This document shows positions 1,497 through 62,961 of a stretch of 64,000 nt of DNA, one piece after another (position 1 is the stretch's first letter; the number at the start of each line of letters is the position of its first letter). The DNA lies in IMG/VR virus record IMGVR_UViG_3300021185_004515. One strand, 5' to 3'. The DNA is from an uncultured virus (IMG/VR IMGVR_UViG_3300021185_004515) (taxonomy: Duplodnaviria > Heunggongvirae > Uroviricota > Caudoviricetes). Below the pieces are notes generated by a model that had not been told where the DNA came from, ran no database searches, and saw nothing but the letters and a program-made list of their open reading frames with translations. A program made the translations under genes and the position numbers.

Positions 1497-2087
1497 TCAC
1501 CGTCTTTTTCTATACATCAAGGTTGCTCCGACCAATACCGCAGCACCAAGAGCAAATTTTTGTCCAGAAAGGGGTGAATCTCCTGTGTCTTCTGCATTAA
1601 ACCAACCAAAATATTTGTTATACCATGCTTCGGAACCAGCGTTATTGGCTTCCGTAGGTGCGGTGGTTACAGTGTTGCTGGAGGATTCGTCAGAGGTTCG
1701 GCATCCAAGTGTAGGCCAAAGAGGATTACAAACACGCTGATTATACATTTTGCGAGCCCCACTTCCTGGTGCAACATTGGTAATATAATTCCAATCTTGT
1801 GGGTCAGCACCTCCAGAGGGCATGATTCCAAAAATTCCTGCAATTCCACTCATAGTCCAAGGCATACCACCTGCACCATAGGGCTGATAAGCATTACCAT
1901 CTTGGTCTAAAGTTGTATAATTGATTTGCCACGCTGTTCCAGCGGCAGTGGTGGCTCCTTTGGAAAGTGGATTTCCAGCAGAGTCATAGCCAATAATTTC
2001 TTCTTTGGCACCTGTGGTTGGATTAGTAGTATAGCAACGACGAGAATAGAGGTCGCCAGGGTCGCAGGATATATTGTAGCCAGTCAT
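1497..2087 (-). CDS. Tail-anchored hypothetical virion protein
   Basis: C-terminal TM followed by RKRR; WFNAE motif; TATA at 2110. Confidence 0.75.
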   Translation of the reverse strand: MTGYNISCDPGDLYSRRCYTTNPTTGAKEEIIGYDSAGNPLSKGATTAAGTAWQINYTTLDQDGNAYQPYGAGGMPWTMSGIAGIFGIMPSGGADPQDWNYITNVAPGSGARKMYNQRVCNPLWPTLGCRTSDESSSNTVTTAPTEANNAGSEAWYNKYFGWFNAEDTGDSPLSGQKFALGAAVLVGATLMYRKRR

Positions 2088-4176: not shown

Positions 4177-5244
4177 TCAGTTGTCGCCCAGAAGCATACC
4201 AAGAGCCGATGCAGCAATAACAGAGCCAGCAGATAGTAGCATGAATCCAAGTCCAATCTTAGCACCAGTTTCAACAGGCTTTGCCAGTTCAACTTGGTCA
4301 GCCCACATGATGTCATTTGGTGGAGAGGAAGCAGCACTCATTCCAGAATCGTCTTCCCACTGAACAATAGCGTTAGTGAGTGATTCAGCGTGGTGTGCAA
4401 CCTTAGCGTCACCGAGTCCACGGAAGCCCACAGGTTTCTGTGACTTAGCGTTGCTTCGGCGGTCTTGACGGAGAGAGCGTCCCACATCAACATTAGAAAT
4501 AAATTCACCCTTAGCGTTGCGAGCAACATAGCGTTGGTTACCGTTCAACTTGTATCGGTTACGCTTACCGTATTTCTGGGCTTCAAATGTTTCCGCAGCC
4601 TTGGTCTTACTGTAACCCTTTCGCATTTTCTGTCCCATTTTCTTGTTATATTGAGAAGAACTCATAGGTCCGTAGACTTGAGGAGAGTATCCAATACGAC
4701 CGTAGCCGTTGAATCCACCCATGTTGGTGTTAATGAAAACATGGAATTTGTTAGCGGAACCACTGCGTTCAGTTAAATAAACTGGGTCGCCTTGGAAACG
4801 AACACCTGGATTTGCCGAACGAATAGCAGCCTTAACAGCCTCAATATCTTGGCGGCCAGGTGGTAGTGATGCCATGGCTTCAAAGGTTTCAGCGTGTTTG
4901 TGGCCGTTAGCGTCACCCATACCACGCTTTCCTGCCTTAGCATAGCGAGTTGGTTTTGGTTCACGCTTGTCAGCAGCGAGACTGCGTCCCATGTCTACAT
5001 TGGAAATAAACTTTCCTTTGCTGTCACGAGCGACATATCGGTAATTACCATTTAGTTTGTATCGGTTTCGGGTTCCATATTCGGCATTTTTTTCCATAGT
5101 TTCACTTCCATAGGTTTCAGCATCCATGGTTTTAGTGCAAGAAGCACAGAAAATGGATTCAGCATTTAGGTCATGTGAATTACAACCTGCACAATGCTGG
5201 TGAGAATCAGATTCTGCACTCTTGCATCCACAGGTGTTACACAT
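4177..5244 (-). CDS. Modular nucleic-acid-binding polyprotein: Cys-rich peptides, two basic repeats, WGR domain, C-terminal TM
   Basis: Duplicated RYKLNGNxRYVARxxKGxFISNVDxGRSL unit; WGR-like SANKF...YGRIG...KKMGQKMRKGY; at least 8 AE/SE motifs at boundaries; TATA at 5267. Confidence 0.8.
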   Translation of the reverse strand: MCNTCGCKSAESDSHQHCAGCNSHDLNAESIFCASCTKTMDAETYGSETMEKNAEYGTRNRYKLNGNYRYVARDSKGKFISNVDMGRSLAADKREPKPTRYAKAGKRGMGDANGHKHAETFEAMASLPPGRQDIEAVKAAIRSANPGVRFQGDPVYLTERSGSANKFHVFINTNMGGFNGYGRIGYSPQVYGPMSSSQYNKKMGQKMRKGYSKTKAAETFEAQKYGKRNRYKLNGNQRYVARNAKGEFISNVDVGRSLRQDRRSNAKSQKPVGFRGLGDAKVAHHAESLTNAIVQWEDDSGMSAASSPPNDIMWADQVELAKPVETGAKIGLGFMLLSAGSVIAASALGMLLGDN

Positions 5245-18008: not shown

Positions 18009-18869
18009 TCACCTTCGGCGCAATAGCATCAAAGGTGCAATCAAAGCAACTCCACAAGCGGCAATAAGAGCATAAGGTGTGGGTGTTGGTTCATCACGGG
18101 TAGATTGCATTTCTTCAATCACAGAAATTGCTTCGGAAGCATTGCGAGGAATAAGAGGTAGTATTTCCATAGGTGGGGCTCTTTCTAATTCACGGCGGGT
18201 GCTTTCAACATCGCCATGATTATAATTTAGTCGGCTCCAAAGTGCGGCACCAATTTTGATTTGCCAAGGTTCGGCAACTGTGCGTCCACCATTAGCAGCC
18301 TTAAGAGATGCTTCAACACGGCTCAAACACATTTGTCCTCGTAGGTAATCGGGAGAGTGATTATCTGGGAACAACCATGCTTCGTATTCGGCTAAAGGCA
18401 TTGAGGCAACACGCTGACTCATAGAGTGTGCAGAATAAATTTCTCGGTATTGGTCGGGGGAAACTTCTGGTGCTTGGAATGCTTCTGGTTCTTCAGGAAC
18501 CATCACTTCTGGTTCAGCAGGTTCTGGAACGGCTTGCCAAGGCTCTTCAGTTTCTGGGCCAGCAGGTGTGATTTCATCTCCAGGAATTTCTGCGGCAACA
18601 TCCATTGCAGGGCCAGCAGGTTCTGATTCTTCTGATTCAGCAGATTTACCTTCCTTTTTAGCCAAGATTGCCTTTTGCAATGCTTCGGGGAGATTATTTT
18701 TCTGATTTTCAGTTAATCCACCTGTATCTTCAGATGCTTTAATTTCGGAAGTGACCTCGGCGGCCTTGTTGGTTGCTTCAGAAGGCAACTCATTAACAAT
18801 TTCAGTATTGGTCTTACTCAGGGTATCCTGCAAATCAACCAATTCAGGTGTTAGGACATCCTCTGCCAT
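18009..18869 (-). CDS. Tail-anchored acidic protein
   Basis: GLTENQKNNLPEALQKAIL motif, Pro/Glu linker, C-terminal TM + RRR; TATA at 18892. Confidence 0.75.
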   Translation of the reverse strand: MAEDVLTPELVDLQDTLSKTNTEIVNELPSEATNKAAEVTSEIKASEDTGGLTENQKNNLPEALQKAILAKKEGKSAESEESEPAGPAMDVAAEIPGDEITPAGPETEEPWQAVPEPAEPEVMVPEEPEAFQAPEVSPDQYREIYSAHSMSQRVASMPLAEYEAWLFPDNHSPDYLRGQMCLSRVEASLKAANGGRTVAEPWQIKIGAALWSRLNYNHGDVESTRRELERAPPMEILPLIPRNASEAISVIEEMQSTRDEPTPTPYALIAACGVALIAPLMLLRRR

Positions 18870-20515: not shown

Positions 20516-21547
20516 TTAACCCCTATTTCTGCCTATCAAATATCCGCCAAGGGCTGCAATTCCTGTGAATATGATTGTCATACCTGTGAATTTGAGCCCC
20601 ATTCTCTGGAGTTTATCAATCAATTCAGTAGGGTGTTTCATGGTTTCATCATGATTTTCTGCACCAAACATCATGCTGATGCGGGCAGGGATTACCATTT
20701 CAGTATTGCAATCGTTACAACAACGGCCATCAAATAATGGTTGAGCATTGTTTCCATAGCGTCCATAATCGGCTCCACAAAAACAACATCCATCATCTAC
20801 ATCATCGGAGGTCTCTGCACCAAATTCTTCTTTGTGGCACTCATCACAAAATGCTCCATCACAACAGTCCTTTGAACATCTATGGGAACTACAAACCGTA
20901 TTACTACACCCTTCGCACCCTCTATTACAACTGCCACAAAGTAAAACATCACATAGGGCGCAATTTCTAAAATCATCATCCCCCTCATAATCTTGACCAC
21001 ACTCATAACAACTTACCATTTCAACTTCGGAGGTCTCGGCATCCATACGAGTCAATTCGCCATATCTAATTTCTAAATTACGATAATTCTTCAAATCTTG
21101 TTCTGAAGGTTCTTCCATATCTTCAATCTCATACAGTTGTGCCAAAATTGTATCTTCTTCGGCAGCCATCCCGTATTCTTGAAACATTTCTTTTGCTTTT
21201 GAATTTATAGATTTTTTATCGTAAATGCTTACCAAAGAACTGCCGACCCAATATAAACCATCGTCACCAGAATCACCAGCCTGACCGAACTCTTCAGTAA
21301 TCAATTCTTCATCTGACATATCTTTGGCAGATTCTGGGTAAATGTTTGAAGGGTAGTGTTCTGAATCACCATCTCTCACTTGAAAAGTAACTAAGTAAAA
21401 TGTTTCTCCGACACGATGCTTTTTCATTCTGCTCTTTTTCTCTTCGGACCTCAACATCATGTTTTGATGTCCTGAATAGTTGATGGATGCGTGGTCAAAA
21501 TCTCCATGAATAGCACTTGATTGAGCCAATTCATTAGGTGTGAACAT
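20516..21547 (-). CDS. Tail-anchored modular polyprotein with zinc-finger modules
   Basis: LRSE, MAAE, MDAE, FGAE, FGAE separate modules; multi-CxxC module and a CCFCG...GRCCNDCN module; C-terminal TM. Confidence 0.78.
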   Translation of the reverse strand: MFTPNELAQSSAIHGDFDHASINYSGHQNMMLRSEEKKSRMKKHRVGETFYLVTFQVRDGDSEHYPSNIYPESAKDMSDEELITEEFGQAGDSGDDGLYWVGSSLVSIYDKKSINSKAKEMFQEYGMAAEEDTILAQLYEIEDMEEPSEQDLKNYRNLEIRYGELTRMDAETSEVEMVSCYECGQDYEGDDDFRNCALCDVLLCGSCNRGCEGCSNTVCSSHRCSKDCCDGAFCDECHKEEFGAETSDDVDDGCCFCGADYGRYGNNAQPLFDGRCCNDCNTEMVIPARISMMFGAENHDETMKHPTELIDKLQRMGLKFTGMTIIFTGIAALGGYLIGRNRG

Positions 21548-21552
21548 CTGAA

Positions 21553-23349
21553 TCACTCTTCAGGTTCTTCTTCAGGTTCTTCAGGGGCGGAAGTTCCGAC
21601 CTTTCGTGAAAGTGTGTAGGCGGTCAATGCTCCGAGAACTGCTGCTCCGATAGCCATAGCCATTTTTGTTTCCGATTTCTGAACCTTAACTACTGGTTCG
21701 GCATCCATTGTCATAACATCATCATACTTACGACCCATCATTGAATGGTCTTTGTCCATAGCAGCCGCTTCATCTCGGCGGTCTTTCATAGATTGTGAGT
21801 GAGCACCACGATGACGCATTCCGAGAGATTCATCCATCTTGTCATCATATCCTTGTTCAGCACTTCCATACCATTGTGGAACGCCTTGTCCAAAGGTAGA
21901 GGAATCTTCGCCATAGGAATTAGGATAGAATCCATCATCTACTGCGGGCATACCGACTCCAACACCAAGTTCTTCAGCACTATATCTTTTTTGCGCCCAT
22001 GCTTTCAAAGAAGGTCTGCTATTAACTAATGACATAGCCATTCGGACCTGCTCCACAGGGTATTTTTGATATGCTCCAAATTCAGAGGTTTCAACTTCTT
22101 CAAGGATTTCTATGACTTCTTCGTCAGACATGGAATCTGCGGTTTCCGCAGAACCATACCATTGTGGAACACCTTGTCCTGAAATTGAAGCGGAGTTTTC
22201 TCCCATACCGTTGTAGGCTTCTTCAGCAGAGCCATACCAAACAGGAACGCCATAGTCAGAAACTGATGCGGAGTTTTCTCCAAATCCATTAGTGAGTGGT
22301 CCTGTGTAATCTCCCAGTCCTTCGGCACTCATTTTCTTAGCGGCACGACGAGCATAATCTTCAGCATCATCATAGTCTTCGCCCATATCCATGTATTCAT
22401 CAGCGATAGCATCTCTGGCTGAACCATCACGAACTGAAACGAATTCATCTTGTTCCCACATAACTTCTGGACCCTCATCTCCTTCGGCTTGATAACCGAA
22501 TGGTGTAGAATCCCAGTTTCCAATGGCTTGTCCAACGACTGAGCCGTCAGTTCCATACATAACTTCTGCTTCAAAGGCCATCGGGCTCATAGAATTAGTT
22601 CCGTAATATTCTGGGACACCATATCCACTACCAGCCGCTGAGTCTTGAGTGAAATCTCCGACGGTGTGATTAAAATTATATCCTTCTGAAGCAAAGTAAT
22701 CTTCTACGGCAGCCGAATTATCGTCTACATCATATCCAACAGGGGTTGCTTCGGGGCGAGCCACATATGCTTCAGGTTCAGCACCATCATATTCAAAAGG
22801 TGTGGCTTGTTCTGCATTCATAGCGGCAGAATCGTCTGCCTCAATACCTGCGACTGTGTTAATGGTATCAACAACTGCTTCTTGATTGTAAATCAATCCT
22901 GAAATATCAAATCCGCCCACAGGAAGAGTTCCTGCTTCAGCAGCACTTTCAATGGCTTCGTAAGAATCTCCTTCGCCCTTTAGCATTGACATACTGGCAT
23001 ATCCTGGAATAGCATAACCTTGTTCAGTTCCTAAACGATAGGTGCGAACTTCTTGGTCACCTTGACGGTTAATTCCCATCACACGACCCATAGAAACTGT
23101 GTCATCATCTTCCACACGGCATCCGATACGACGAGGTTGGAATCCATGGTTATCGGTCTCTCCCGCATAATAGAATAGAGCGCAAGGGAAAAATCGTCCC
23201 TTATCGGAATCATCCATACTTGCATATTGTGATTGGGTGATAATAAAGGTATATGGGTAAAAATTGACGGCAGCGTCAAAATCTCCAGCGTGTCCCCAAT
23301 AATCATCAGAGGTGATTAGCAGCATTTCGGTTTCTACATTTTGTGGCAT
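21553..23349 (-). CDS. Acidic polyprotein with internal GVPxWYGSAE repeats and C-terminal TM
   Basis: At least 10 AE/SE motifs; three WYGSAE repeats; TM near C-terminus. Confidence 0.8.
   Translation of the reverse strand: MPQNVETEMLLITSDDYWGHAGDFDAAVNFYPYTFIITQSQYASMDDSDKGRFFPCALFYYAGETDNHGFQPRRIGCRVEDDDTVSMGRVMGINRQGDQEVRTYRLGTEQGYAIPGYASMSMLKGEGDSYEAIESAAEAGTLPVGGFDISGLIYNQEAVVDTINTVAGIEADDSAAMNAEQATPFEYDGAEPEAYVARPEATPVGYDVDDNSAAVEDYFASEGYNFNHTVGDFTQDSAAGSGYGVPEYYGTNSMSPMAFEAEVMYGTDGSVVGQAIGNWDSTPFGYQAEGDEGPEVMWEQDEFVSVRDGSARDAIADEYMDMGEDYDDAEDYARRAAKKMSAEGLGDYTGPLTNGFGENSASVSDYGVPVWYGSAEEAYNGMGENSASISGQGVPQWYGSAETADSMSDEEVIEILEEVETSEFGAYQKYPVEQVRMAMSLVNSRPSLKAWAQKRYSAEELGVGVGMPAVDDGFYPNSYGEDSSTFGQGVPQWYGSAEQGYDDKMDESLGMRHRGAHSQSMKDRRDEAAAMDKDHSMMGRKYDDVMTMDAEPVVKVQKSETKMAMAIGAAVLGALTAYTLSRKVGTSAPEEPEEEPEE
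21856..22290 (-). repeat. Three coding repeats N-x2-GE-x-S...GVP[VQ]WYGSAE
   Basis: Units at about 21856-21920, 22144-22213 and 22222-22290. Confidence 0.85.
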
Positions 23350-25601: not shown

Positions 25602-25997
25602 TCACTTGCTGCTACGAACGCCAGCCCAGTAAATTCCACCCACAACGGCCACACCAATAAGGGTATATCCCAGATTTTGAGTAATCCAATCGTTGAAACT
25701 TTTAACAAGTTCTCCCAATCGTGGGGTAGTTGGCTCCACTTTAAGTCCAGGAATTGGTTCCTCAACAGTAGTGGAGTTATCTTCTTCAGCCGCAAATGTT
25801 TCGGGTTCGGGTGCAGGAAGTCCCAATTCTGATTCAGTGTAGTTAGTCATAGGGACACCATCTCCAAAAGCACCAGAATGAATGGTAAATCCATCTTCCA
25901 TAGCCATAACGGTATCTCGTGGATTAGGTGGGTTCAAATTAGCATCCCATCGGTTTTGAGTATCACGAGTAATAAAGTTGTTTTGCATTGTAGTCAT
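25602..25997 (-). CDS. Tail-anchored protein
   Basis: TFAAE motif; C-terminal TM. Confidence 0.72.
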   Translation of the reverse strand: MTTMQNNFITRDTQNRWDANLNPPNPRDTVMAMEDGFTIHSGAFGDGVPMTNYTESELGLPAPEPETFAAEEDNSTTVEEPIPGLKVEPTTPRLGELVKSFNDWITQNLGYTLIGVAVVGGIYWAGVRSSK

Positions 25998-30283: not shown

Positions 30284-30709
30284 TTATGCTGTGCTTATTG
30301 CCCAGTATGCTGCGGCAACTACGGCAAATCCACCAACAATTGTGATAGCGATTTTTCCAGCACCGTTGCCCAAATCATTTTTGATTTCAGATTCTTCATC
30401 TTCGCCTTCGGCTCGCTTGGTGTGACTTCCGACTGAAGCAGTGGCTTCTTTTTCTTCATCAGTCATACGAGAGCGTTGTTCAGTGTTATCATCTTTGTCT
30501 ACTTTTGCTTCCACAGACATTTCTGAACGAGCGTCCATAGCAGGAGCCATCATTTGAGTAAATGGATTGCTGGAGGCAACTGAAGCGGAATTAAGATGGT
30601 AAGAGCGTGTAGCACCAAATGTGGAATCTTCCCAAGGAAACAATCCGACGGTGGTGTTTGGGTCAAAGGTCACAGGTTGGCTCATTGAACTATCTTCAGC
30701 AAGAGTCAT
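30284..30709 (-). CDS. Tail-anchored protein
   Basis: C-terminal TM; ARSE/KRAE; TATA at 30732. Confidence 0.72.
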   Translation of the reverse strand: MTLAEDSSMSQPVTFDPNTTVGLFPWEDSTFGATRSYHLNSASVASSNPFTQMMAPAMDARSEMSVEAKVDKDDNTEQRSRMTDEEKEATASVGSHTKRAEGEDEESEIKNDLGNGAGKIAITIVGGFAVVAAAYWAISTA

Positions 30710-31554: not shown

Positions 31555-32793
31555 CTATTTAAGATTACGAATTAAAGTCCATGCACCAGCCGAGGCCATC
31601 ACGGTTCCGACGATGGCTAACAAAGGTGTGCGTCGGGTGTTGCGATTAGACAAATCTGTGTCAGGGTCGTATTCTACTCGTGGACGAGAATCTACGGTTT
31701 CTGCCGTCCAAGAATTGGCGGCGGATGATTTCAACAATTCATCTTCAGGAGCCACATCTAAATTAGGATAAAAACTGGCTGCTTCTCGGAGGCGGTCGCG
31801 GGGTGATGGGCTCTGAGTGGGAACTGATGAAACGGTGTGTTCAGGAATCGCAGCCATATTTTCTGGGGCTGACATAGACTCTAATTGAGATAAATCAGAA
31901 ATTTCAGAGATGGACGAGGGAATTGGGTTGGCGGTTCCAGAGTGTTCACCATAATTGGCTTGAACATCAATGTTGTTTCCTTTGTGTTCTACTCGTCGGT
32001 CACCACGAATCTTATCTACCACAATATATCCTCGGTCTCGGAAAAATTCTGGGGCATAAGCCACACACTCTCCTTTGCGAGCCGCTGCAATACCATTAAG
32101 AAGTCTTTTGACTACTTTCTTATCAGTTCCGAAACTCAATTGTTCGTCCAGAGCCTTGAGGTCACGATTGTTGATAACATTGTGAACCAGATAAATTGAG
32201 GCTTGAGATAGTGCTTCCTTGTTCACACCAGCAGGTCGCTGGCTCACCAGAGTAGCACCATAACCCAAAGCACGGCCTAATTTGCATAAGCGCACGATAG
32301 GGTCAAAAGAAATTGGTCTACCCATTTGTGGAATAAAGTCTTGACACTCTTCAATTACGGTGTGAATACCTTTGCCAAGATGTGCCTCTAATAATGCTTC
32401 ACAGTAATCTGCAACTAATTCTTGTTGAGTCAATAGTGGTAATCCTGCGAGTTTGATAACCAATGATTTACTGGTTTCTCCTAATCTTTTTACCAAGGCT
32501 TTCATATCTACGGATTGTCCAATCGCAGGGGTTAAACCCTCCACTCCTTCTAAGTCAGGGAGGTTTCCGTGAGCATCCAGAGCATCAAAACAAACAAATT
32601 GTAGTCCTAAACGGTTAAACTCTTCCATCATTACCGCAGTAGTCCATGATTTACCAGACCCACGCTTTCCTGTGACAAAAAATACGGACGAGATGACGGA
32701 ATCCTCACCATATGCTGGAAGGTGTAGATGTTTTCCCAAAACAACTTGCTTCGGGTCTATGCCATTATCTTGTATAAAATTCATAACGCCCAT
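31555..32793 (-). CDS. HerA/FtsK-superfamily ATPase with C-terminal TM; candidate genome-packaging ATPase
   Basis: Walker A GKRGSGKS, Walker B VIEECQ, arginine finger KLGRALG, LVSQRP; hydrophobic C-terminus. Confidence 0.85.
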   Translation of the reverse strand: MGVMNFIQDNGIDPKQVVLGKHLHLPAYGEDSVISSVFFVTGKRGSGKSWTTAVMMEEFNRLGLQFVCFDALDAHGNLPDLEGVEGLTPAIGQSVDMKALVKRLGETSKSLVIKLAGLPLLTQQELVADYCEALLEAHLGKGIHTVIEECQDFIPQMGRPISFDPIVRLCKLGRALGYGATLVSQRPAGVNKEALSQASIYLVHNVINNRDLKALDEQLSFGTDKKVVKRLLNGIAAARKGECVAYAPEFFRDRGYIVVDKIRGDRRVEHKGNNIDVQANYGEHSGTANPIPSSISEISDLSQLESMSAPENMAAIPEHTVSSVPTQSPSPRDRLREAASFYPNLDVAPEDELLKSSAANSWTAETVDSRPRVEYDPDTDLSNRNTRRTPLLAIVGTVMASAGAWTLIRNLK

Positions 32794-51792: not shown

Positions 51793-51800
51793 ACTATTAT

Positions 51801-51944
51801 CTAATCGTTTTCGCTATTTAAGTTTTGCGAAACAAACCTGGTGATTACAGGATTACGGATGGCAATAAACCACCAAACAAAATAGAGGCTTGCTAATGAT
51901 AATGTGGTTAGCCAAGCCAAAATAAACCAAATAATTAGTTCCAA
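51801..51944 (-). CDS. 47-aa single-TM protein (not in ORF track)
   Basis: TTG start after GGAGTGA; ELIIWFILAWLTTLSLASLYFVWWFIAIR; directly downstream of the ArsA/GET3 gene. Confidence 0.55.
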   Translation of the reverse strand: MELIIWFILAWLTTLSLASLYFVWWFIAIRNPVITRFVSQNLNSEND

Positions 51945-53122
51945 CTTAGTTTCACTCCTGCGGAGACTTTACGACGAGTGGGCTTTCCTGCGTCGGCGGG
52001 AAGTGGGACTTGATAATGAGGCGAACTGCCACCCATGTTAAAGTCCTCCCAACGATACAAAGATTCTTGCTCATTGATTTTCCACTTGGCTGAGTCCAAA
52101 AATGGGACTGAGATGGTGACTGACTTATCACCTGTTATCAATGATTTTTTGGGAGCAAAAGAGATTCCTTTTGAATTCCAGAGAATTTTAGCGTAATCAA
52201 CCAACTTGGCACCACGAGGTTCGTATGGCAAACGAGAAACGCCTACTAATCGGATGTTGTGAGAGGCACAGATTTCTTGATATTTGATAAGATAAGGTTG
52301 CTGAATGTCGTATTCGCACTTGATTAACTGAGTCGCAGGATTGGGATTATCTCCTTCAGCGGCTTCCCAAGTAGTGGGTCCGAAATTAGGGATGATATTA
52401 TTTACCACTATGTTGTGAACCTTAATTTTCTGAGACTCTAAAAATCGGATAGTTCGGTAGCATTCTTGAAGTCCTGCTTCGGAGGCAATAGATACTAAAT
52501 TAACACTGACCCACTCGCTACGAAGTAAGGCTTTCAGACGGTCTATTTTATCACAAACCTCTTCCAATAAATTGGCTAATTTTTCTGCGGTTTTGTCACG
52601 GCGGAACAAAACGCCTTTGAAATTCTCAATCTTGGCTTTCATACGCAAAATCTTGAGCAAAAAGGTTTTAATATAGTCGGGGGCTGTTAAAGCACGAAGC
52701 GTGTGTCCTGTGGGGGCTGTATCAAATACCACTACATCATAGTCACAAGATTGGGTTAATCGCAGAATCTCTTCTAAAGCAAAGTATTCATCCATTCCTG
52801 GAAATCCTGCCATGTCAGAAAACAGTTCGGAATCCAAACCAGGCAACATTTTAGAGAATGTTTCAGCGGTGGCTTGATTCAAAGTGTCCGTAAAATTAAG
52901 AGCCATGCGTTCTGCATCTATGTTTTTAGCCCAAAAATTAGGAGCAATTTGAACTTCAGTCGGACCGACGGCTACTCCTAATGTGTCATCAGTGCTATGG
53001 GCTGGGTCAGAAGATACCAGAATTGTTCGGTAGCCTTGAGAGGCTAAATGTTGGGCTGATGCAGCGGAAACGGTAGACTTACCGACACCACCCTTGCCTG
53101 TATAAAGTAACAGTTGAGCCAT
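51935..53122 (-). CDS. ArsA/GET3 (TRC40)-family ATPase
   Basis: Deviant Walker A GKGGVGKST, SSDPAHS, FPGMDE, DTAPTGHT; single ATPase domain; no ars genes nearby. Confidence 0.92.
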   Translation of the reverse strand: MAQLLLYTGKGGVGKSTVSAASAQHLASQGYRTILVSSDPAHSTDDTLGVAVGPTEVQIAPNFWAKNIDAERMALNFTDTLNQATAETFSKMLPGLDSELFSDMAGFPGMDEYFALEEILRLTQSCDYDVVVFDTAPTGHTLRALTAPDYIKTFLLKILRMKAKIENFKGVLFRRDKTAEKLANLLEEVCDKIDRLKALLRSEWVSVNLVSIASEAGLQECYRTIRFLESQKIKVHNIVVNNIIPNFGPTTWEAAEGDNPNPATQLIKCEYDIQQPYLIKYQEICASHNIRLVGVSRLPYEPRGAKLVDYAKILWNSKGISFAPKKSLITGDKSVTISVPFLDSAKWKINEQESLYRWEDFNMGGSSPHYQVPLPADAGKPTRRKVSAGVKLSWN

Positions 53123-53140
53123 AACTTGACTTTGTTATTG

Positions 53141-53155
53141 TTGCTATTTGAATCT
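53141..53155 (-). promoter_or_regulatory. Variant promoter (GATTCAAATAGCAA) of the ArsA/GET3 gene
   Basis: TATA variant 22 nt upstream of ATG 53122. Confidence 0.75.
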
Positions 53156-53157
53156 TC

Positions 53158-53571
53158 TTAAGCCCATTTCATCACGAAATCGTCTGACAAAACCTTGGTA
53201 TCGTCAGCAATAATCCAGTTTTCAATAAAGTCTCCTCGGATAATAACTGTGTAAAAAGTCCCATAAATTACTGAGGCTAATTCTGCTGGGTAAAAACTGG
53301 CGGACAATGAAAACAACAAAACTCGGTCCTCTTCATAGGCACTATCCTCAATTTTTATATTGATGCCTTCGCCAATGTAGGGTCCTGAATAGATAACTTC
53401 AGAATCCATACAGACAAAGATGTGAAAATAGTCTGCATATTGGGTTTCTTCAGGGGCTATCAAAATTTCTGTGAGTTGAACTCCCGCAGGTATTTTTGCA
53501 GAAGTCATAACCAACAGGTCTTCGGTTGAACTAACGGTCATGCGGCGTTCGTATTCTGACATGGTTCTCAT
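53158..53571 (-). CDS. Small beta-rich protein (possible jelly-roll minor capsid protein)
   Basis: Alternating hydrophobic strands; TATA at 53592. Confidence 0.55.
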   Translation of the reverse strand: MRTMSEYERRMTVSSTEDLLVMTSAKIPAGVQLTEILIAPEETQYADYFHIFVCMDSEVIYSGPYIGEGINIKIEDSAYEEDRVLLFSLSASFYPAELASVIYGTFYTVIIRGDFIENWIIADDTKVLSDDFVMKWA

Positions 53572-53616
53572 GTATAATTTCATTTATTTACTATTTAAGT
53601 TTTTAGCCTTCCTGCA

Positions 53617-56457
53617 TCATGATTTGTCGGATTCTTCTGTTTCTGGGTCTTCATTTTCCTTTTTTCGGCGTTCTAATGGCGTTTCTTTTCTGGGAACTGA
53701 ACTACCATACAAAGTTTCATCTTCCAGCCATTGAGCGTCTGAGGAAATTTGTCGTTTCAGTTGAGAATCTTGGTCAGGGAAGGCACTCATGTTTTTCAGA
53801 TTTCTCTCTATAAAATCATCTTCTATGAAATCGTGATTAGAAACCACAAATTCGCCTTGCAGAATTTCTTCCAATCCATTAGCAATAGCCGATTGTTGGC
53901 TACGACGACGGCGTAATCTTCCTTGTCGCTCCTTGTCAATCAACATTTTACGATATTCGGCTTGTTGAGCATCAATCCAGGCTTCAACTTCTTCATTACT
54001 CATGTTCAAAACATCGCCATTAAGGATTTTTCGCTTATACCATTCCACATTTTCTACGGTTACACGAAGTCCCAATTCTTGGATAACCACGGCAACCAAC
54101 GAATCAATGTTATCGTATAACAGATAATCAATCCAGACTCGTGCCGTTCTTCCTGTGGAACCTTGAAGTTCAAAAGATTGGAATCCTCTCACAGTTGCTA
54201 TCGTGCCAAGAGGTGTTTCCCAAGGCAGGTCAAGAGATTGAATGGCTCTTTGGCCTAATTGAGTGGTGTCTACGGCTCCACCAAAGAAGCATAGTCCATC
54301 TAAAAACGGAGTCATGTTACGAGGCGTGTAAAAGGCAGATTTAGTGTTGGAATCAACATCAGGAAACTGGTCGGTCTGGTCAAGATAAGCAATTTGGGTG
54401 GCTGGTTGTCGGTCAAAAGCAGAATTGCAACTCATTACTGTGCCTCCTGTGGAGTCTGCATAAGTAAAAACCCATTGGTCACGGTCAGCATCCCAGCCTC
54501 CCGAAACAGGAATTCGGGTGGTAGAGTTGCGGTTCACTTCAATCTCGGCATTCATGGTGGCTCCAAAATTGAAAATATCAGGTCCTGCTGCTGTATCTAC
54601 CACCCATTTATTTGCGATAACATTTCCCGACATTTGCACAGTGCCGAAATCATACATAATGACTTGCGGGCCATTTGCTGAACGATACCCTAAAAATCCA
54701 TAAGCGATGTTAGCGGGCTGTCCTGTGAAGGCGGGTTCATTAGAGGCACCATACTGAATAACATTGGGAGTTTGAAGGCCGCAATAATAACTTATTGGGT
54801 CGGGAGATTGTCCTTGTAATGTCGGGTCAGAACTAAGACGACGCTCCAAATTTTTATCTGGTATGGCTCGCAAAATCTGGAGACCAACATCTGGTTGTTG
54901 CTGTTGAAATTCAAGTTCTTGCAAATCTTTAGCAATTTCTTCATCTTCCTGCGTAAATGTTTTTTGTTGAATTGCTTTGGCATACCATTTATCAGGCAGA
55001 ATGATACCTGCTGCTGTTTCTATGCCACCACCCTTGACTCCAAAAGGCCAAATACCCAATCCCTGAGTCGGAGGTGTCACGAAAACTGTGGTAAGTGAAT
55101 CAAAAACATAGAAAAAGTTGGCAGCGTAAATTTCTCCATTAGTTGAGGCACCGTGCGTAACACGGTCTACGGCAATCAATACTTGGAGCGTAGCAGGGTC
55201 TTGGGTTCCATCTTGGGCAGAAAAACTGGGTGTGATAGCAGTGCCATAAGCACCGTTAAGATTATAGGCAGGAACTGATGCGTCTATCATCCAGTTCAGA
55301 TTCCCCAGTGCAAAAGTCATTACACCGTTAGCAAAAGCCCCGCTTTCTCGTAAGTAATCCCAGCCTGAGAAAAATGGTGTGGTGATGCTGACTGAACCTG
55401 CACCATCTCCATAGGCTACTTCTCCTGTAAAAACACCGAAATTGATGGTGGCATCATAAGGAATTGGGGCAACATTGAGGCAAGCAACATCATGAACTCG
55501 GGTAGGGTAATATCCATTATTGAGTGTGGTGATGTCCACTTGGGTGAAGGTAACAGTGGAAGTATTTGATGACTTGCAAATACTGGATATATCCAGTTTT
55601 CTTGCTGGGGCGCATAATTGAGACGGTAATCCTGTTCCGATATTGGTGGAACCATTGATGGAAATGGTAGAGGATTCATTACGAATAAACTGAATATCGT
55701 ATGCTTTCGCTGTGTTCGTGGGGAGTGTTTCTGAATACTCAATTTCGGGAGAGACAATCTCAAATAGGAGGGTGCTGAACCACGCTGAATAATCTTGTCC
55801 TGTTAGTCCACCCTCTACTGCGGTGTTAATGCGACTATGACCTCCGACAACTAAAGTAAATTGCTGGAGACCTTCATTGACTCTTTTAGCACTATCTAAG
55901 CCATAAACTCCTGGTGTGGAATCGCTGGAAATCCCTGTGAGTCCTGGGTCGCACTCATAAGGCATACGACATAGGTAAGTCCAATATTCATTCTGCCTGT
56001 TAAATGGTTGGTCAATAATAAATCCGTTGTTATCATAACCAGGATTCAACCAATACTTGTCAGAAAATATGGGCGGTTCCTCTCCTGGGTTTTGTTCTTC
56101 AAAATATCTGGCACTCACAAATCCTAAGTTGTGTGCTCTGATTATGGTAATAAAACCATCCCACGCCCATGCTCCTGCTCCTCCGTTCAAATCACTGAAA
56201 AATGCCCGATAACTACCGACCACAATATAATGGTCTTGACAATAAGTGGTGTTACGAATAATGATGTCAAATTCAGAAAAATCTGCATCACTAAATTGAG
56301 GGATGACGATGTCTCCCGCAGGTTTAGTAGAACTCTGACCTTGTCGGTTGCTGTCTGCTGTGAATTTCCATAGTTGTCTATCTCCATCGCTCAATATGTA
56401 TCCCCAATCAGTGAGGCTCTTTAGGGCTTCTACATTTAGATTGTATGCTAACCCCAT
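53617..56457 (-). CDS. Large beta-rich protein carrying the capsid-protein C-terminal motif; possible spike/vertex protein
   Basis: YLLYDNIDSLVAVVIQELGLRVTVENVEWYKRKIL matches the capsid tail YTLYDGPDALIANKLLELGVTINPNNVDWYKRSLI. Confidence 0.7.
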   Translation of the reverse strand: MGLAYNLNVEALKSLTDWGYILSDGDRQLWKFTADSNRQGQSSTKPAGDIVIPQFSDADFSEFDIIIRNTTYCQDHYIVVGSYRAFFSDLNGGAGAWAWDGFITIIRAHNLGFVSARYFEEQNPGEEPPIFSDKYWLNPGYDNNGFIIDQPFNRQNEYWTYLCRMPYECDPGLTGISSDSTPGVYGLDSAKRVNEGLQQFTLVVGGHSRINTAVEGGLTGQDYSAWFSTLLFEIVSPEIEYSETLPTNTAKAYDIQFIRNESSTISINGSTNIGTGLPSQLCAPARKLDISSICKSSNTSTVTFTQVDITTLNNGYYPTRVHDVACLNVAPIPYDATINFGVFTGEVAYGDGAGSVSITTPFFSGWDYLRESGAFANGVMTFALGNLNWMIDASVPAYNLNGAYGTAITPSFSAQDGTQDPATLQVLIAVDRVTHGASTNGEIYAANFFYVFDSLTTVFVTPPTQGLGIWPFGVKGGGIETAAGIILPDKWYAKAIQQKTFTQEDEEIAKDLQELEFQQQQPDVGLQILRAIPDKNLERRLSSDPTLQGQSPDPISYYCGLQTPNVIQYGASNEPAFTGQPANIAYGFLGYRSANGPQVIMYDFGTVQMSGNVIANKWVVDTAAGPDIFNFGATMNAEIEVNRNSTTRIPVSGGWDADRDQWVFTYADSTGGTVMSCNSAFDRQPATQIAYLDQTDQFPDVDSNTKSAFYTPRNMTPFLDGLCFFGGAVDTTQLGQRAIQSLDLPWETPLGTIATVRGFQSFELQGSTGRTARVWIDYLLYDNIDSLVAVVIQELGLRVTVENVEWYKRKILNGDVLNMSNEEVEAWIDAQQAEYRKMLIDKERQGRLRRRRSQQSAIANGLEEILQGEFVVSNHDFIEDDFIERNLKNMSAFPDQDSQLKRQISSDAQWLEDETLYGSSVPRKETPLERRKKENEDPETEESDKS

Positions 56458-58626: not shown

Positions 58627-59931
58627 TTATTTTCTCATAAACCATGCTGCTCCGCCTGTGAAAACGGCCAATCCAAAGAAAGGCCACCACAAATTTGTGG
58701 TGATGGGTTCACTAACGGCATTGGTTTGGGAGTAGGTAACGACACGGGTGTCGGTAGTTTCAGAAGTTCCTCCATTTTCGGTGGAATCGTAAGTGCAACT
58801 TCCATCGTCGGAATTGGCGGCAGAATTGTAATTGTTTGCCGTAGAGTCTGTGCATCCAGAAACTGTGGCAGGAGGTGGTGTCTCAGATGGTCCTGTAACC
58901 GAAGTAATTACGAAAGCATCATTATAGGGGCCTTCGGTCTTCATAAGTGGTCCGACATACGGGGCGGAATTGGTGGCTGACCATGCCAAATCGTTGGTGG
59001 TTCCTGAAACTGTGAATCCTTGACGGGGAGTTATCTTGAAATATACTACTTCTCCTGAATAATTGGAACTCAGGTATTCGGCATCTACTCCTTGAAGATT
59101 GAATTTTTGGGTGCGAACTCCTTTCTCAGTAAATAATCCTGTGCCACACTTGACCAAATAATCTTTATTGCCACTTAACACCTCTCCGAATCGGGGTGTG
59201 CTGAACGAAAGAGGCAACAAATAATCTGTGGTGGTAATTACTACACAAGAACCATCATCAAAATTAGCCGAAGAATTGTAATTATCTGCTTGAGAACAGG
59301 TGCAACCCTCTACCAAGGGAATACATGAACCATCATCAGTGTTGGCGATGCTGTCAAAGTTCAAAGCAGCGGCATCGGTGCATCCTCGGTAGATACAATT
59401 TCCTGCGGAATTAGCATTAGAGTCATAATTGTCTGCGAGAGAATCCATACATCCGACTATATTTACGGTAGCATTGGTGATTTTCAAGTAATAATATTGA
59501 CTTGGTGCTACGGTAAATGTGGTGGAGCCTGACCAAGCCTGAGCGGAAATTGCATCTCCATCTCTGACTCCTTGAGGACTAAAACCCCATCCTGAAACAG
59601 AGGAAATATTGTCTTTGAATGCTACGGTAACTTGAACTGCCTTGGTTTCTTTGTTGCGAATAGAAACAAATGATTTGTGTCCATCATAAAATAATCCATA
59701 TCCGAAACTGCCACTTCCTGATTTAACTTCGGGCTCCCAAGATTCTGAGGCTCCTGCCCAAGTTGCAGAGACTACTAAATAATCTGCGATGTCAGAGGGA
59801 AGTTCTTCTGGGTGGTCGGTCCGATAACTATTTTTCCAAACCGTAGGTAGTGCAGAGGTAGCCCTCAATACCACTGACTCAGCATTGTAAATACCTGTCC
59901 AATAATTATCTACTGCGGTAATTCCCAACAT
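58627..59931 (-). CDS. Tail-anchored surface protein with GCxDxxAxNY...DDGSC repeats
   Basis: Four Cys repeats; YNAE after short N-peptide; C-terminal TM. Confidence 0.8.
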   Translation of the reverse strand: MLGITAVDNYWTGIYNAESVVLRATSALPTVWKNSYRTDHPEELPSDIADYLVVSATWAGASESWEPEVKSGSGSFGYGLFYDGHKSFVSIRNKETKAVQVTVAFKDNISSVSGWGFSPQGVRDGDAISAQAWSGSTTFTVAPSQYYYLKITNATVNIVGCMDSLADNYDSNANSAGNCIYRGCTDAAALNFDSIANTDDGSCIPLVEGCTCSQADNYNSSANFDDGSCVVITTTDYLLPLSFSTPRFGEVLSGNKDYLVKCGTGLFTEKGVRTQKFNLQGVDAEYLSSNYSGEVVYFKITPRQGFTVSGTTNDLAWSATNSAPYVGPLMKTEGPYNDAFVITSVTGPSETPPPATVSGCTDSTANNYNSAANSDDGSCTYDSTENGGTSETTDTRVVTYSQTNAVSEPITTNLWWPFFGLAVFTGGAAWFMRK

Positions 59932-59932
59932 A

Positions 59933-60370
59933 TTATTGCCTCTGGTTGTATTGTAGTGATAGGATTAGAATCATACCGATAGTTACTACACCCAGAATTT
60001 TCTGAGTTGGTATTTCATTGGCTGGCTTGATATTTGAACTTTGCGATGAAATGTTGTTGGATTTAACTTGAGTAACACAAGCGCAATCCTGAGATTTACA
60101 ATCATGGCCGCCGCCAACGAACACCGAGTCGGCATCTGAACAACTAACATGGGATTCGGGACAAATTAAACTTTTTTGTCGGTTAAACTCGGCTTCATCT
60201 AATCCTCGGTCAGACCAAAGTTTCTTAAAATCCGAATAACTGGCACTGGAAAATTTCTGACCTGATTCATTATACATTCGGGACACAATAAATTCATGAT
60301 ATGTCAAACTGCAATCAACAAGGGCTTGTAATCTGCCTGAAGTATAAGTGTGGTCTAAATCAAACTTCAT
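59933..60370 (-). CDS. Tail-anchored Cys-containing protein
   Basis: MKFDLDH start after GGTGA SD; C-terminal TM. Confidence 0.65.
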   Translation of the reverse strand: MKFDLDHTYTSGRLQALVDCSLTYHEFIVSRMYNESGQKFSSASYSDFKKLWSDRGLDEAEFNRQKSLICPESHVSCSDADSVFVGGGHDCKSQDCACVTQVKSNNISSQSSNIKPANEIPTQKILGVVTIGMILILSLQYNQRQ

Positions 60371-60807
60371 TGTATCACCCGTGGAGTTTTTTGACCGTAA
60401 TTGATGATGAATTCGTAGGCATAAATGGATTGGTATTCCCAATAATCTACCCACATTTTGTGTGCTTCGGGTGTCATAGGAAGGTATGTCCAATATACAT
60501 TATCATCAACAGAATATTTTTCAGAGTTAGGGCCTCCTCTGTTTGAACAATACTGCAATATATCATTAGTTTGTAACCAAGCACTCGCTTGTTCTATAAG
60601 CATTGATTCCTCTTCATCAGTAATGGGCAAACTAATATCGCCCAAATCTGCTGTTCTCTGGACATGGAAGAAAAATGGTAATTCTTGTCGGTCAGGCCAA
60701 TCTTCATAGGCTTCTTCCTGAATAAATCCTCCTACTCCAGAGAGGTTGATTCGGTAATTTGGAGGGAACTTTTTCATCCACTCAGGCAATAAATTGTAAT
60801 TATTCAT
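60367..60807 (-). CDS. Hypothetical protein
   Basis: Overlapping stop/start in operon. Confidence 0.65.
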   Translation of the reverse strand: MNNYNLLPEWMKKFPPNYRINLSGVGGFIQEEAYEDWPDRQELPFFFHVQRTADLGDISLPITDEEESMLIEQASAWLQTNDILQYCSNRGGPNSEKYSVDDNVYWTYLPMTPEAHKMWVDYWEYQSIYAYEFIINYGQKTPRVIQ

Positions 60808-61951
60808 CGTTAATCCCCCTATTCTTGGCCGAGATAGCGGTAGAAACTACGATTCCTACCGCAGTTAAGCCCACAATTCCTGCCACTAAACCTGTTGCGG
60901 TGAAAGATTTTTCGGGGGTGGGGTCTGGGGAGGGGGTTGTTTTTGCTTGCTTATCCTTGACACACTTGCCAAAAGTTCCAAGTATTCCTCGTTTATACCC
61001 TGCCTTGCACACACATTTACCTGCTTCTGGGTCATATTCTGAATGTGTATCGCTGTCGTAGCAATACTCACAGGGATTATCTGGGTCTTCTGCGACTGAG
61101 CCTTCCACATAATTTTGTGCCGTGGAATCCTTACATCCGATTTGTTGGAATCCTGTGGCTGTGGTGATGCGGTATTTTTTCCATGTTGTAGGAATTAGTG
61201 ATGGTTTTACAATGTATTCTTGAGTGGTAAGTCCTGTGGCTCTGTATCCTGCTTTCGCTATCCGTCCCTCATTATCTGACTTATCTGGTTGTGGAATATC
61301 TGACTTTCCTGCTTTTTCTTCCCATTCCCACTTGTGAAGAATTTTGGCATAGGGTGGGTTGGTATCGTATTCATTAGTGGGTTGTCCTTTGTAAGTCCAT
61401 TGTTCTACAATATATCCGCCTTCGGTATAGGTTGGGGCATAGATACAGGAACAATCTCCTTGAGTTTCTGCTACTGTTTGTAGGATTGGTGTTTCGTTCC
61501 AACTCTTGTTGAACTCCCAAACAGGGTTGCTGGTTTTGCAGGGACATCTTGAACTGGGCGATACGGGAGAATAATTGATGGCACTGGAGTCTCCACAGCC
61601 GTCTTCTACTCGGAAGTCATTCATCTTTTCTATGTAGTCTGCTCGGGCGGAATTGGCCTCAGATGTGGTGCTATACTCTCCAATTTTTCGGGCTGTATTA
61701 GAATCTATGGGGTTTCTACCGTCGGTGGTAGAACTGACACGGTATTTGATGGCTTGAGTATCAATCGTGGTAATTTTCATCACATAGATTGTTTCATCGT
61801 GAACTGAATTGCAAGCCAGAGATAGGTTGTCTATAACATCGTATTTGGTATTGCCGCTGGTGAATGTTTCCACACGCTTTTCTATTGTTTCAGCATTACG
61901 AGCCGTCTGAGCAAAATTAAGTTCGTAGGGATTGGATAATATGGTTCCCAT
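60800..61951 (-). CDS. Tail-anchored Cys-rich surface protein
   Basis: GCGDSSAINY, GCKDSTAQNY, EGF-like CVCKAGY; RNAE; C-terminal TM. Confidence 0.78.
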   Translation of the reverse strand: MGTILSNPYELNFAQTARNAETIEKRVETFTSGNTKYDVIDNLSLACNSVHDETIYVMKITTIDTQAIKYRVSSTTDGRNPIDSNTARKIGEYSTTSEANSARADYIEKMNDFRVEDGCGDSSAINYSPVSPSSRCPCKTSNPVWEFNKSWNETPILQTVAETQGDCSCIYAPTYTEGGYIVEQWTYKGQPTNEYDTNPPYAKILHKWEWEEKAGKSDIPQPDKSDNEGRIAKAGYRATGLTTQEYIVKPSLIPTTWKKYRITTATGFQQIGCKDSTAQNYVEGSVAEDPDNPCEYCYDSDTHSEYDPEAGKCVCKAGYKRGILGTFGKCVKDKQAKTTPSPDPTPEKSFTATGLVAGIVGLTAVGIVVSTAISAKNRGINDE

Positions 61952-62961
61952 TAAATTTTCCCTCCATAGATTGTGGCTCCTGCGGTAATCAAGACAATTG
62001 CTAATCCTGCGGCTACAAATCCGCCTGAGTTAGTGGTGGGTGTGGATTCATCATCGTCAGTGGTATTCTGGCAGTGGGTGTTGTCCCAATAGTGTGCGTC
62101 AGCGTTGTATTTAGAATTAGATTCATCGGTGCATGATGCGGTAAATGTTGGTGATTTCAACCACCACATTAGTTCGCCTGTGCCACCTGTTTGTTGATGA
62201 TATTTAGTGGCTTCTGCGATAGCCCATGAAAAATACTTAACAAAAATTTCTGTTCCGACATATCCTTGTGAGATACATTCTGATTCTGAAAACTGTGACT
62301 CATTGGCATCCACATAAAATATACATGGCATAGAAACTTTCCATTCTTGCTGGTCTGGTTCTATGACCGCTACTCCTTTCTTGAGAGCATCTGCTGACGA
62401 TGATACATCTAATCCAGCAGGTAGATTGGTGAGGTGTCCTTGTGAGTCCACTCTCCATCCTGAAGGCAAAGTGTGTGGTTGGTGTCCTTGATAGATGGTT
62501 AAATCGTATAATTTGTCTGAATTATCTATGACTTCATACGATTCTTCCCAAGTTTCCTTGCAAAACAATTTAGCATCCCGATATTCTTTGGGCTGGTCGT
62601 TGTAAAACAACTCTCCTGTGTAGGATTGAGAATTGGCTCCTGCACAAGTTCCTGTGGTGATAATGATGTTGTCAGGGTGTTCCCACCATTGGTCGTGAGT
62701 GTTTGATTGTCGTTGGAAGATAGCGGGTCGCTCAGATTCGGCGGCAAATGGGTTCTGATTTGGTCCTGCTATTTTAACCAAAGTTTGAGGTGGTATGCCG
62801 TTGCTAAATTTGGTCTGTGCCTGAACTGAACCATCTGGATTTTGAGTGAGAACATATCCGTCTGCCCAAGCAGCCAAAGATTTGGTTTCTCCTGAGTCCC
62901 GTGATTGCCACATATTTTGTGGCGGTAATGGAACACTATTGAAGGCCGAGCCTAACCACAT
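61951..62961 (-). CDS. Tail-anchored protein
   Basis: FAAE; SCTDESNSKYN repeat variant; C-terminal TM; TATA at 62984. Confidence 0.78.
   Translation of the reverse strand: MWLGSAFNSVPLPPQNMWQSRDSGETKSLAAWADGYVLTQNPDGSVQAQTKFSNGIPPQTLVKIAGPNQNPFAAESERPAIFQRQSNTHDQWWEHPDNIIITTGTCAGANSQSYTGELFYNDQPKEYRDAKLFCKETWEESYEVIDNSDKLYDLTIYQGHQPHTLPSGWRVDSQGHLTNLPAGLDVSSSADALKKGVAVIEPDQQEWKVSMPCIFYVDANESQFSESECISQGYVGTEIFVKYFSWAIAEATKYHQQTGGTGELMWWLKSPTFTASCTDESNSKYNADAHYWDNTHCQNTTDDDESTPTTNSGGFVAAGLAIVLITAGATIYGGKI

Follow-up and report, generated by a model that had tools for sequence, protein, structure and literature searches.

A predicted Get3-type ATPase in a group of large marine viruses and its possible role in the delivery of viral tail anchors

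We analyzed a stretch of 64,000 nucleotides from an uncultured virus of the class Caudoviricetes (IMG/VR record IMGVR_UViG_3300021185_004515; the whole stretch is hereafter called the window), with a focus on a gene at 51935..53122 on the minus strand that encodes a P-loop ATPase of 395 amino acids (aa) in an open reading frame (ORF) running from an ATG start to a stop codon. Judged from its sequence, the protein is a catalytically competent ATPase of the Get3 type, and its gene belongs to the core set of a group of large marine viruses that are probably archaeal and seem not to have been described before. In the best-supported reading, the viral ATPase captures and delivers viral tail anchors; homology, gene context and an enrichment of tail-anchor-like proteins lead us to give this reading a probability of about 0.5. 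In eukaryotes, the insertion of tail-anchored proteins depends centrally on Get3, or TRC40; what the protein does in archaea and bacteria is still debated, and to our knowledge no membrane receptor is known there. Our limited literature search found no description of Get3 in an archaeal virus or of a virus-encoded Get3 for tail anchors. A preliminary description of the window, made from the sequence alone, had proposed that the virus carries its own tail-anchor targeting factor for building the virion membrane. This proposal is partly supported by the Get3 type of the protein, by its viral carrier, and by the strong enrichment of tail-anchor-like proteins in the window and two relatives.

Family models and structure comparison both place the protein in the Get3/ArsA family. 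The Pfam family ArsA_ATPase matches residues 4–246 at 1e-57, and the NCBIfam model TIGR00345 (GET3_arsA_TRC40) gives 181 bits against a cut-off of 135. Residues 1–318 (52169..53122, minus strand) form the Get3/ArsA-fold part, as delimited by structure match, alignments and helix pattern. The preliminary description had read the gene as a single-domain ArsA-family ATPase; the ORF and the single ATPase domain within the 395 aa were confirmed, while a beta-rich C-terminal domain at residues ~320–395 had been missed. An AlphaFold model based on a 31-sequence alignment reached a mean predicted local distance difference test score (pLDDT) of 83.8 and a predicted template modeling score of 0.84, with low confidence only at residues 93–96 and 170–173. 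Residues 1–318 of the model matched archaeal Get3 (M. thermautotrophicus TRC40, 3zq6) with a Z score of 26.1 and a root mean square deviation of 3.4 over 263 aligned residues, and M. jannaschii Get3 (3ug6) with a Z score of 23.9. The Z scores were about 25 for diatom and yeast Get3, about 24–25 over yeast, human and diatom Get3 including client-bound forms, and 20–22 for ArsA entries. In a Foldseek search, the first 12 rows were all Get3 or TRC40 (E = 5e-22). The fold alone separates Get3 from ArsA only bluntly, since the Z ranges are close; the sequence does separate them.

The catalytic motifs are intact. The P-loop GKGGVGKS (residues 9–16), switch I DPAHS (39–43) and switch II DTAPTGHT (134–141) are invariant or nearly so in 31 family members. 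The helical subdomain spans residues 70–201; its helices are amphipathic, with conserved hydrophobic positions at helical periodicity, and a connecting loop carries a conserved hydrophobic triplet. Across the family, the helical region holds 4–8 methionines (median 6). Bodensohn et al. 2019 put the number at six in yeast Get3 and at four or more in fungi. Archaeal Get3 provides the best structural and profile matches, sharing with the viral ATPase a single ATPase domain, the same P-loop, DPAHS and DTAPTGHT motifs, and extended helices 7–9. The viral protein is only ~27–30% identical to archaeal Get3, carries ~15 additional residues where CxxC would be, and has a further beta domain at its C-terminus.

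A protein search with the viral ATPase scored 8000 candidates, of which 6420 matched at E <= 1e-5; the 120 best were 260–432 aa long and 47–100% identical, 107 of them covered at least 90% of the query, and many were from marine sources. At least 592 relatives came from an alignment-based scan in which each prokaryote species was represented by one genome. Among the 80 matches listed, the best full cellular matches were from Poseidoniales, at 39% identity over residues 1–247 only, and two partial cellular matches covered residues 1–158 at 39–40% identity. Single-protein pattern scans of viral and genome contigs did not find the relatives, whereas alignment-based scans did. GenBank phages gave only partial ArsA-like matches, at no more than 36% identity to the viral ATPase.

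Sequence comparison supports the assignment of the protein to the Get3 type rather than to the arsenite pump ArsA. The family profile scored 189 bits on 3zq6 and 180 bits on 3ug6, in one continuous alignment that included residues ~150–200, and 99 bits on ArsA, where only the first ~155 positions aligned well. In a 22-row alignment containing both halves of two ArsA proteins, the ArsA halves were 24–34 residues shorter between switch II and the next strand; helices 7–9 lie at that site in the viral protein, its Poseidoniales homologues and Get3, but not in ArsA. The viral insert has the length and gap pattern of the Poseidoniales homologues. The two Cys-bearing stretches of ArsA (GSCTTE and SPCTEE) align to G-M-D in the viral family, whose sole invariant cysteine, C221, lies away from the ArsA Cys columns. 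The metalloid-binding cysteines of ArsA (C113, C172 and C422 in the E. coli protein) are thus absent, a point that the preliminary description had proposed to check. On the ArsA equivalog models, the viral ATPase scored 93 bits against a cut-off of 650 (TIGR04291) and 100 against 800 (NF041417, ArsA_halo). Pfam scans of 78 ORFs of the window and 127 ORFs of G003, a related viral contig, showed no arsB, acr3, arsC, arsR or arsD family, which for the window agrees with the earlier statement that arsB, acr3, arsC and arsR are not nearby. A plasmid ArsA used for comparison, of 585 aa, lies beside arsR, arsD and arsH. The ArsA pump (E. coli R773-type; 1f48, 9nbl) therefore resembles the viral ATPase in its SIMIBI fold and the DTAPTGHT motif, whereas its tandem two-domain build, metalloid cysteines, lack of the helical insert and ars operon all set it apart.

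The phylogeny is consistent with this assignment. The tree comprised 86 rows and was computed with IQ-TREE in its quick mode, with SH-aLRT support only. Besides the window protein, its rows took in 18 family proteins out of the 120 listed, 12 loci from viruses or metagenomes, 8 further metagenome loci, all 22 archaeal and every third bacterial genome locus (19 of 57), and the halves of two ArsA proteins and of one Nostoc protein (six half-proteins). The viral family formed one clade on a branch of length 0.65, with a support of 99 for 29 rows and 98 for 31 rows when the distant members L130 and L131 were included. The ArsA halves formed a distant, long-branched clade. The viral clade joined a clade of Chloroflexota, Actinomycetota and Archaeoglobaceae with a support of 91, and the tested members of the latter carry the ArsA_HSP20 domain; the Poseidoniales clade was separate, and deep nodes were weak. 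Thus, the preliminary expectation of a Get3-type protein rather than an ArsA pump was borne out by the insert, the Cys columns, the family scores and the tree, and the comparison of ArsA and Get3 clades that it had suggested gave a divided answer: the protein is far from ArsA, and it also stands outside the characterized methanogen/Asgard Get3 clade. By these alignments and this tree, the viral ATPase is not ArsA, is not a recent copy of any sampled cellular gene, and lies outside the biochemically studied Get3 clades.

Immediately downstream of the ATPase gene, and overlapping it by 10 nt, is an ORF with a TTG start (51801..51944, minus strand) for a 47-aa single-pass membrane peptide, at the place where the preliminary description had noted it. 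Such an ORF, of 47–63 aa, directly follows the ATPase gene in nine of nine distinct core-clade loci with downstream sequence (the window, L083, L084, L085 and L124–L128; L129 ends without downstream sequence); the two ORFs overlap by up to about 28 nt or stand at most 4 nt apart. In L081/L082 the peptide lies 2 kb from the ATPase gene, and it is absent from the distant members L130 and L131. Ten copies of the peptide are just 17–28% identical to that of the window and share an acidic/aromatic N-terminal start, one transmembrane (TM) segment and an acidic end; the invariant F, V, W and N sit around YFV.W..(W)RN. Since positive residues follow the TM segment, the tail, which is first basic and then acidic, is predicted to face the cytoplasm. 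A proposed homology of the peptide to the conserved 6-TM protein encoded upstream of the Poseidoniales Get3-HSP20 gene was rejected (hhalign probability 0.9%).

Another line of evidence is the number of tail-anchor-like proteins. We counted an ORF as tail-anchor-like if it had one hydrophobic 17-mer with a Kyte-Doolittle mean of at least 1.4, no more than 30 aa from the end, and none elsewhere. By this rule 12 of 73 ORFs in the window were tail-anchor-like (one a likely spurious plus-strand ORF), as were 20 of 200 in G003 and 14 of 225 in a second related contig, G004. The same script found 21 among 1149 ORFs in 80 cellular loci and 18 among 306 in 15 unrelated IMG/VR contigs. The excess in the window is about ten-fold over the cellular loci (p = 1e-7, Fisher) and has a p value of 0.006 against the unrelated viral contigs; by this control it is well beyond chance. 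G003 and G004 are likewise enriched relative to the cellular loci; a comparison with related viruses had been proposed as a check in the preliminary description. That description had listed about 14 proteins with a lone C-terminal TM segment. Eleven of the 14 pass our rule; those with starts at 2087 and 59931 are weaker (1.32 and 1.25), and the one at 57135 is a 41-aa stretch within a 60-aa ORF. It had seen no evident signal peptide in these proteins; N-termini were hydrophilic in 12 of 13 scored proteins, with a maximal 15-aa Kyte-Doolittle mean of no more than 0.87, and the value was 1.39 for the long reading of 59933–60493.

The clearest tail-anchored topology in the window is that inferred for a P-loop ATPase of the HerA/FtsK superfamily (31555..32793, minus strand), a candidate packaging ATPase with a lone C-terminal TM segment that matches phrog_2666 ("terminase large subunit") at 1e-13 and also gives HerA matches. 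Since such an ATPase needs cytoplasmic ATP, a C-terminal TM segment would make it tail-anchored. The other tail-anchor-like proteins, all on the minus strand, are encoded at 2120..3139, 4177..5244 (with a Cys-rich N-terminus), 18009..18869, 20516..21556, 21553..23349 (with an acidic tail after the TM segment), 25602..25997, 30284..30709, 59933..60493 (within which the start given earlier as 60370 falls), 60800..61951 and 61951..62961. The two weaker cases are at 1497..2087, whose G003 and G004 orthologues have no anchor, and at 58627..59931. Ten of the 16 best hits from G003 and G004 retain the C-terminal hydrophobic stretch. The HerA-like ATPase and the proteins at 21553–23349, 25602–25997 and 30284–30709 keep it in both orthologues.

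The carrier is a virus with relatives of considerable size. The ATPase family was found in five related IMG/VR contigs (84–166 kb) at 52–56% identity, and the gene is present and syntenic in all five. It lies within a colinear block of genes common to the window and the related contigs, and the window is colinear with about 40–100 kb of G003. Upstream of the ATPase gene are genes for a 141-aa protein (53158..53583, minus strand), a syntenic neighbor in the relatives, and a conserved 946-aa protein (53617..56457, minus strand). Nearly all genes of the window point the same way, with 74 of 79 crude ORF calls falling on the minus strand, and the guanine-plus-cytosine content is 41–47%. G003 (160,342 bp; loci L106–L114) and G004 (166,176 bp; loci L115–L123) are linear contigs classed as having inverted terminal repeats. 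The Pfam scan of G003 found in its arms a large subunit of DNA polymerase D (PolD; three DP2 domains, 1e-104 to 8e-83) with a DP1-like protein, TBP (5e-46), TFIIB (2e-45), PCNA, an archaeal Holliday-junction resolvase, ERCC4, a primase small subunit, a class II ribonucleotide reductase, an XPD-like helicase, three C5 methyltransferases, and both UvdE and Fpg; G003 further encodes Nudix and MazG proteins. This archaeal-type set of replication and transcription genes indicates that the group most likely consists of archaeal viruses. Assignment of a host through PolD DP2 was abandoned because its pieces were 35–49% identical to Poseidoniales, Archaeoglobaceae, Heimdallarchaeota and Methanothermococcus alike and gave no host signal. 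At 160–166 kb, the relatives would be large for archaeal viruses. The literature search, limited as it was, returned no description of a PolD-encoding virus group, nor of a virus with its own PolD, TBP and TFIIB, and a term search of a paper on Poseidoniales viruses did not find ArsA, Get3 or PolD.

Eleven studies contributed 14 marine, seawater or viral-fraction runs with near-identical DNA to positions 51000–54000 of the window (at least 98% of sampled words), any of which could have yielded the window, and contigs from metatranscriptome (RNA) libraries of three studies cover parts of the ATPase gene at an identity of at least 99%. The RNA libraries are weak support because DNA carry-over is possible, and the uncovered parts of the gene carry no meaning. 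Taken together, the many marine runs and the RNA libraries indicate that the virus recurs widely.

The C-terminal domain (residues ~320–395; 51938..52165, minus strand) is modeled as 6–7 short strands with a pLDDT of about 87–94. None of the 31 family members scanned had a Pfam match there, ArsA_HSP20 (PF17886) included. In cellular relatives of comparable length, ArsA_HSP20 occupies this position, with 71–74 bits in Chloroflexota, Caldilineales and Archaeoglobaceae and marginal scores (24 and 20 bits) in the Poseidoniales clade. When the viral family was compared by hhalign with 18 HSP20-bearing cellular proteins, the probability was 100% over 377 columns, and the alignment ran through the C-terminal domain. 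The domain is therefore probably a divergent HSP20/alpha-crystallin-like domain, too divergent for Pfam, unlike that of the cellular HSP20-bearing relatives. Short family members (306–317 aa; L126–L128, L130 and L131) have no such domain. Three of these (L126–L128; metagenome contigs with an ATPase of 316–317 aa) keep the downstream peptide, suggesting that the pairing with the peptide is more conserved than the HSP20-like domain.

The same architecture, at ~390–425 aa, is found in HSP20-bearing Get3-like ATPases, namely the archaeal "Group 11" of Bodensohn et al. 2019 and the plant and cyanobacterial Get3d. The accessible text on Get3d, which has an alpha-crystallin domain, reports ATPase activity, the pull-down of tail-anchored proteins and an incomplete active site. 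In contrast, the motifs of the viral ATPase are complete, and it keeps the His of DTAPTGHT, which is replaced in the members from Chloroflexota and Archaeoglobaceae. In six of seven loci of the Poseidoniales clade (L001, L019, L028, L032, L132 and L133), the Get3-HSP20 gene is directly upstream of SRP54 (SRP54, SRP_SPB and SRP54_N domains), which links this cellular clade to protein targeting. In five of these six loci (not L028), the Get3-HSP20 gene is also divergent from a gene for a conserved multi-TM protein of ~240–265 aa with no Pfam family, whose tail reads RRRLRRIW followed by an acidic end. The Get3-HSP20, SRP54 and multi-TM genes may form an archaeal targeting gene cluster.

On this basis we propose how the viral ATPase may work. 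It would act as a dimer and bind the hydrophobic C-terminal anchors of viral proteins without signal peptides, including the HerA/FtsK-type ATPase. By the precedent of Get3, its helical insert would serve as the client groove. The anchors would be shielded in the cytoplasm and then passed to a membrane in an ATP-dependent cycle. The conserved, translationally coupled 47–63-aa peptide would most likely be either the membrane-side partner, as a docking site, or a dedicated client, and the target membrane would end up in the virion. The proposed logic is that of the eukaryotic GET/TRC pathway, in which a cytosolic ATPase and a membrane partner (Get1/Get2 or WRB/CAML) serve C-terminal anchors. Unlike in GET/TRC, the candidate partner spans the membrane once, has only ~50 aa and falls in no known family, and the client tails are mostly basic. 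Homologues of Get1, Get2, Get4, Get5 and Sgt2 were not seen by Pfam in the window or G003.

Several observations weigh against capture and delivery of tail anchors. The viral insert is ~9 residues shorter than that of methanogen Get3, and the presumed lid loop has a pLDDT below 50 at residues 170–173. The viral ATPase lacks the CxxC zinc motif that fungal, animal and methanogen Get3 carry, with at most a single Cys, or K, R, T or M, at the aligned site, where methanogen and Asgard homologues do carry CxxC; the viral clade has there its own insertion of ~15 residues (~247–262) with an invariant W252. CxxC is not universal, however, since according to Bodensohn et al. 2019 functional plant Get3 lacks it, as do some archaeal Get3 proteins able to bind tail-anchored proteins. 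The viral clade groups with HSP20-bearing Get3-like proteins of unproven function rather than with characterized Get3, and, according to the same source, having a TRC40 insert is not enough to predict tail-anchor targeting. Genes and TM segments were called crudely, unrelated viral contigs already reach 5.9% tail-anchor-like ORFs, and 6 of the 16 best hits in G003 and G004 have no anchor. Pfam identified no insertase gene in the window or G003. Finally, the tails are mostly short and terminate in basic residues (RKRR, RRR or RK), which are unfavorable for crossing an energized membrane and make the topology uncertain, a caveat already raised in the preliminary description that stands. If the target membrane comes to enclose DNA in its lumen, basic tails would be expected there, a hypothesis that would answer the caveat.

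In the closest alternative, the ATPase would be an ATP-regulated holdase or chaperone of general use, handling virion proteins that are hydrophobic or prone to aggregation (small proteins with one or two TM segments, or capsid subunits). It would employ the Get3 groove and the HSP20-like domain and would not deliver its clients to a membrane receptor. The HSP20-like C-terminal domain would suit such a role, a holdase activity of Get3 is known (PMC6593721 and PMC3613179, as far as these texts were available), and the window also encodes many small proteins with both N- and C-terminal or with multiple TM segments. An ArsA-family ATPase of Nostoc likewise sits among genes for very hydrophobic structural proteins of the gas vesicle. 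The close, conserved link of the viral gene to a membrane peptide speaks instead for a membrane step, the peptide is kept in L126–L128, which have no HSP20-like domain, and the enrichment is specifically in C-terminal anchors. We regard the holdase as possible and doubtful. The Nostoc case is from N. sphaeroides plasmid p4 (L205), where a 634-aa two-domain ArsA-family ATPase is encoded in a gas-vesicle cluster between GvpL/GvpF and AAA ATPase genes, and both of its halves are on very long tree branches.

It is unlikely that the viral ATPase is a host-takeover factor that competes with or redirects host targeting linked to Get3 or the signal recognition particle, by sequestering host tail-anchored proteins or occupying a receptor. 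Poseidoniales, not shown to be the host, own a Get3-HSP20 beside SRP54 with which a viral paralogue could interfere, and the viral clade has a long branch (0.65) and its own insertion at a dimer-interface site. The gene lies, however, within a conserved, structural-looking block together with viral anchor-bearing proteins, and its intact catalytic motifs do not suggest a dominant-negative form. Still less probable is a ParA/MinD-like ATPase for partition or positioning of the genome or the assembly site, with only the SIMIBI fold in common. The sole PHROG match is phrog_164 (ParA-like partition; 1.6e-11, residues 8–138), and there are weak Pfam matches to CbiA (residues 8–46) and ParA (4–39) over the P-loop. 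These matches are confined to the P-loop region, NCBIfam ParA/MinD models score far below their cut-offs, and the full-length fold, switch motifs and helical subdomain are Get3/ArsA-specific, with TIGR00345 passing its cut-off. Arsenite or antimonite resistance as an auxiliary metabolic function, to which the name "arsenite-transporting ATPase" of some family members in the sources and the occurrence of ArsA genes on phage and prophage contigs might point, is contradicted by four independent tests and is scarcely credible. The protein has a single domain without cysteines at the two ArsA stretches, its equivalog scores are far below the cut-offs, it is distant from the ArsA halves in the tree, and the scans of the window and G003 showed no ars genes.

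A more specific form of tail-anchor delivery would have the ATPase and the ~50-aa peptide constitute a minimal, self-sufficient pair of targeting factor and receptor (or insertase). This pair would load dozens of anchored proteins, including the packaging-type ATPase, onto a virus-specific membrane in the archaeal cell, with N-terminal domains toward the capsid or cytoplasm and basic tails toward a DNA-filled lumen. We consider this speculative and rather improbable as a whole. If true, it would be the first virus-encoded GET-like pathway, and the peptide the simplest known Get3 receptor.

Regarding the virion itself, two adjacent jelly-roll-like paralogues of 219 and 221 aa (11756–12415 and 12452–13117, minus strand) are weak capsid candidates. 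They are the best-conserved genes, with 72–76% identity to the copies in G003 and G004, each of which holds four. Their model is poor (pLDDT 64.7) and shows a beta sandwich plus two helices at the C-terminus. Of 48,161 chains compared, one from Sulfolobus polyhedral virus 1 (SPV1; Z 8.1, 127 residues) matched it best, the internal-membrane archaeal virus HHIV-2 ranked third (Z 6.6), and BFVD matches were weak. A Z score of 8.1 is within the range of chance best hits, so that a membrane-containing icosahedral virion is merely a lead, and this modeled likeness to SPV1 and HHIV-2 capsid proteins is the sole hint of a virion membrane. The C-terminal helical motif of the paralogues, DGPDALIANKLLE.G..INP.NVDWYKRSL, recurs near residues 800–855 in relatives of the 946-aa protein, and the N-terminal part resembles a 160-aa protein (56495–56977). 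Two other capsid candidates were dropped. The paralogues at 32842–34026 and 34036–35304 (minus strand) are 58% identical to each other and gave weak VWA-like leads only (atlas 0.88); together with a nearby 1429-aa protein with a MoxR-type AAA lid (39936–44225, minus strand; family scan), they may represent a MoxR-VWA pair. The protein at 29395–30249 (minus strand) is Pro-rich and repeat-like; it is conserved at 53–56% identity, has repeated PRPAPT-like stretches, and lies beside the HerA-like ATPase in L085.

Most proteins of the window have no Pfam or PHROG family. Among those that do, an ATP-dependent DNA ligase is encoded at 1–837 (Pfam/PHROG family match) and a Cdc48/CdvC-like AAA ATPase at 6906–8264 (minus strand; family scans, 71 bits to the Vps4-like CdvC). 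The latter also resembles proteasome-activating nucleotidase and adjoins two GT2 glycosyltransferase genes (8295–10223, minus strand).

A virus with a core Get3-type ATPase would be a compact natural test system for Get3-like proteins outside eukaryotes, and it could show both the minimal membrane partner that they require and how archaeal viruses populate the virion membrane. Our results suggest that the virus may bring its own membrane-protein delivery system.

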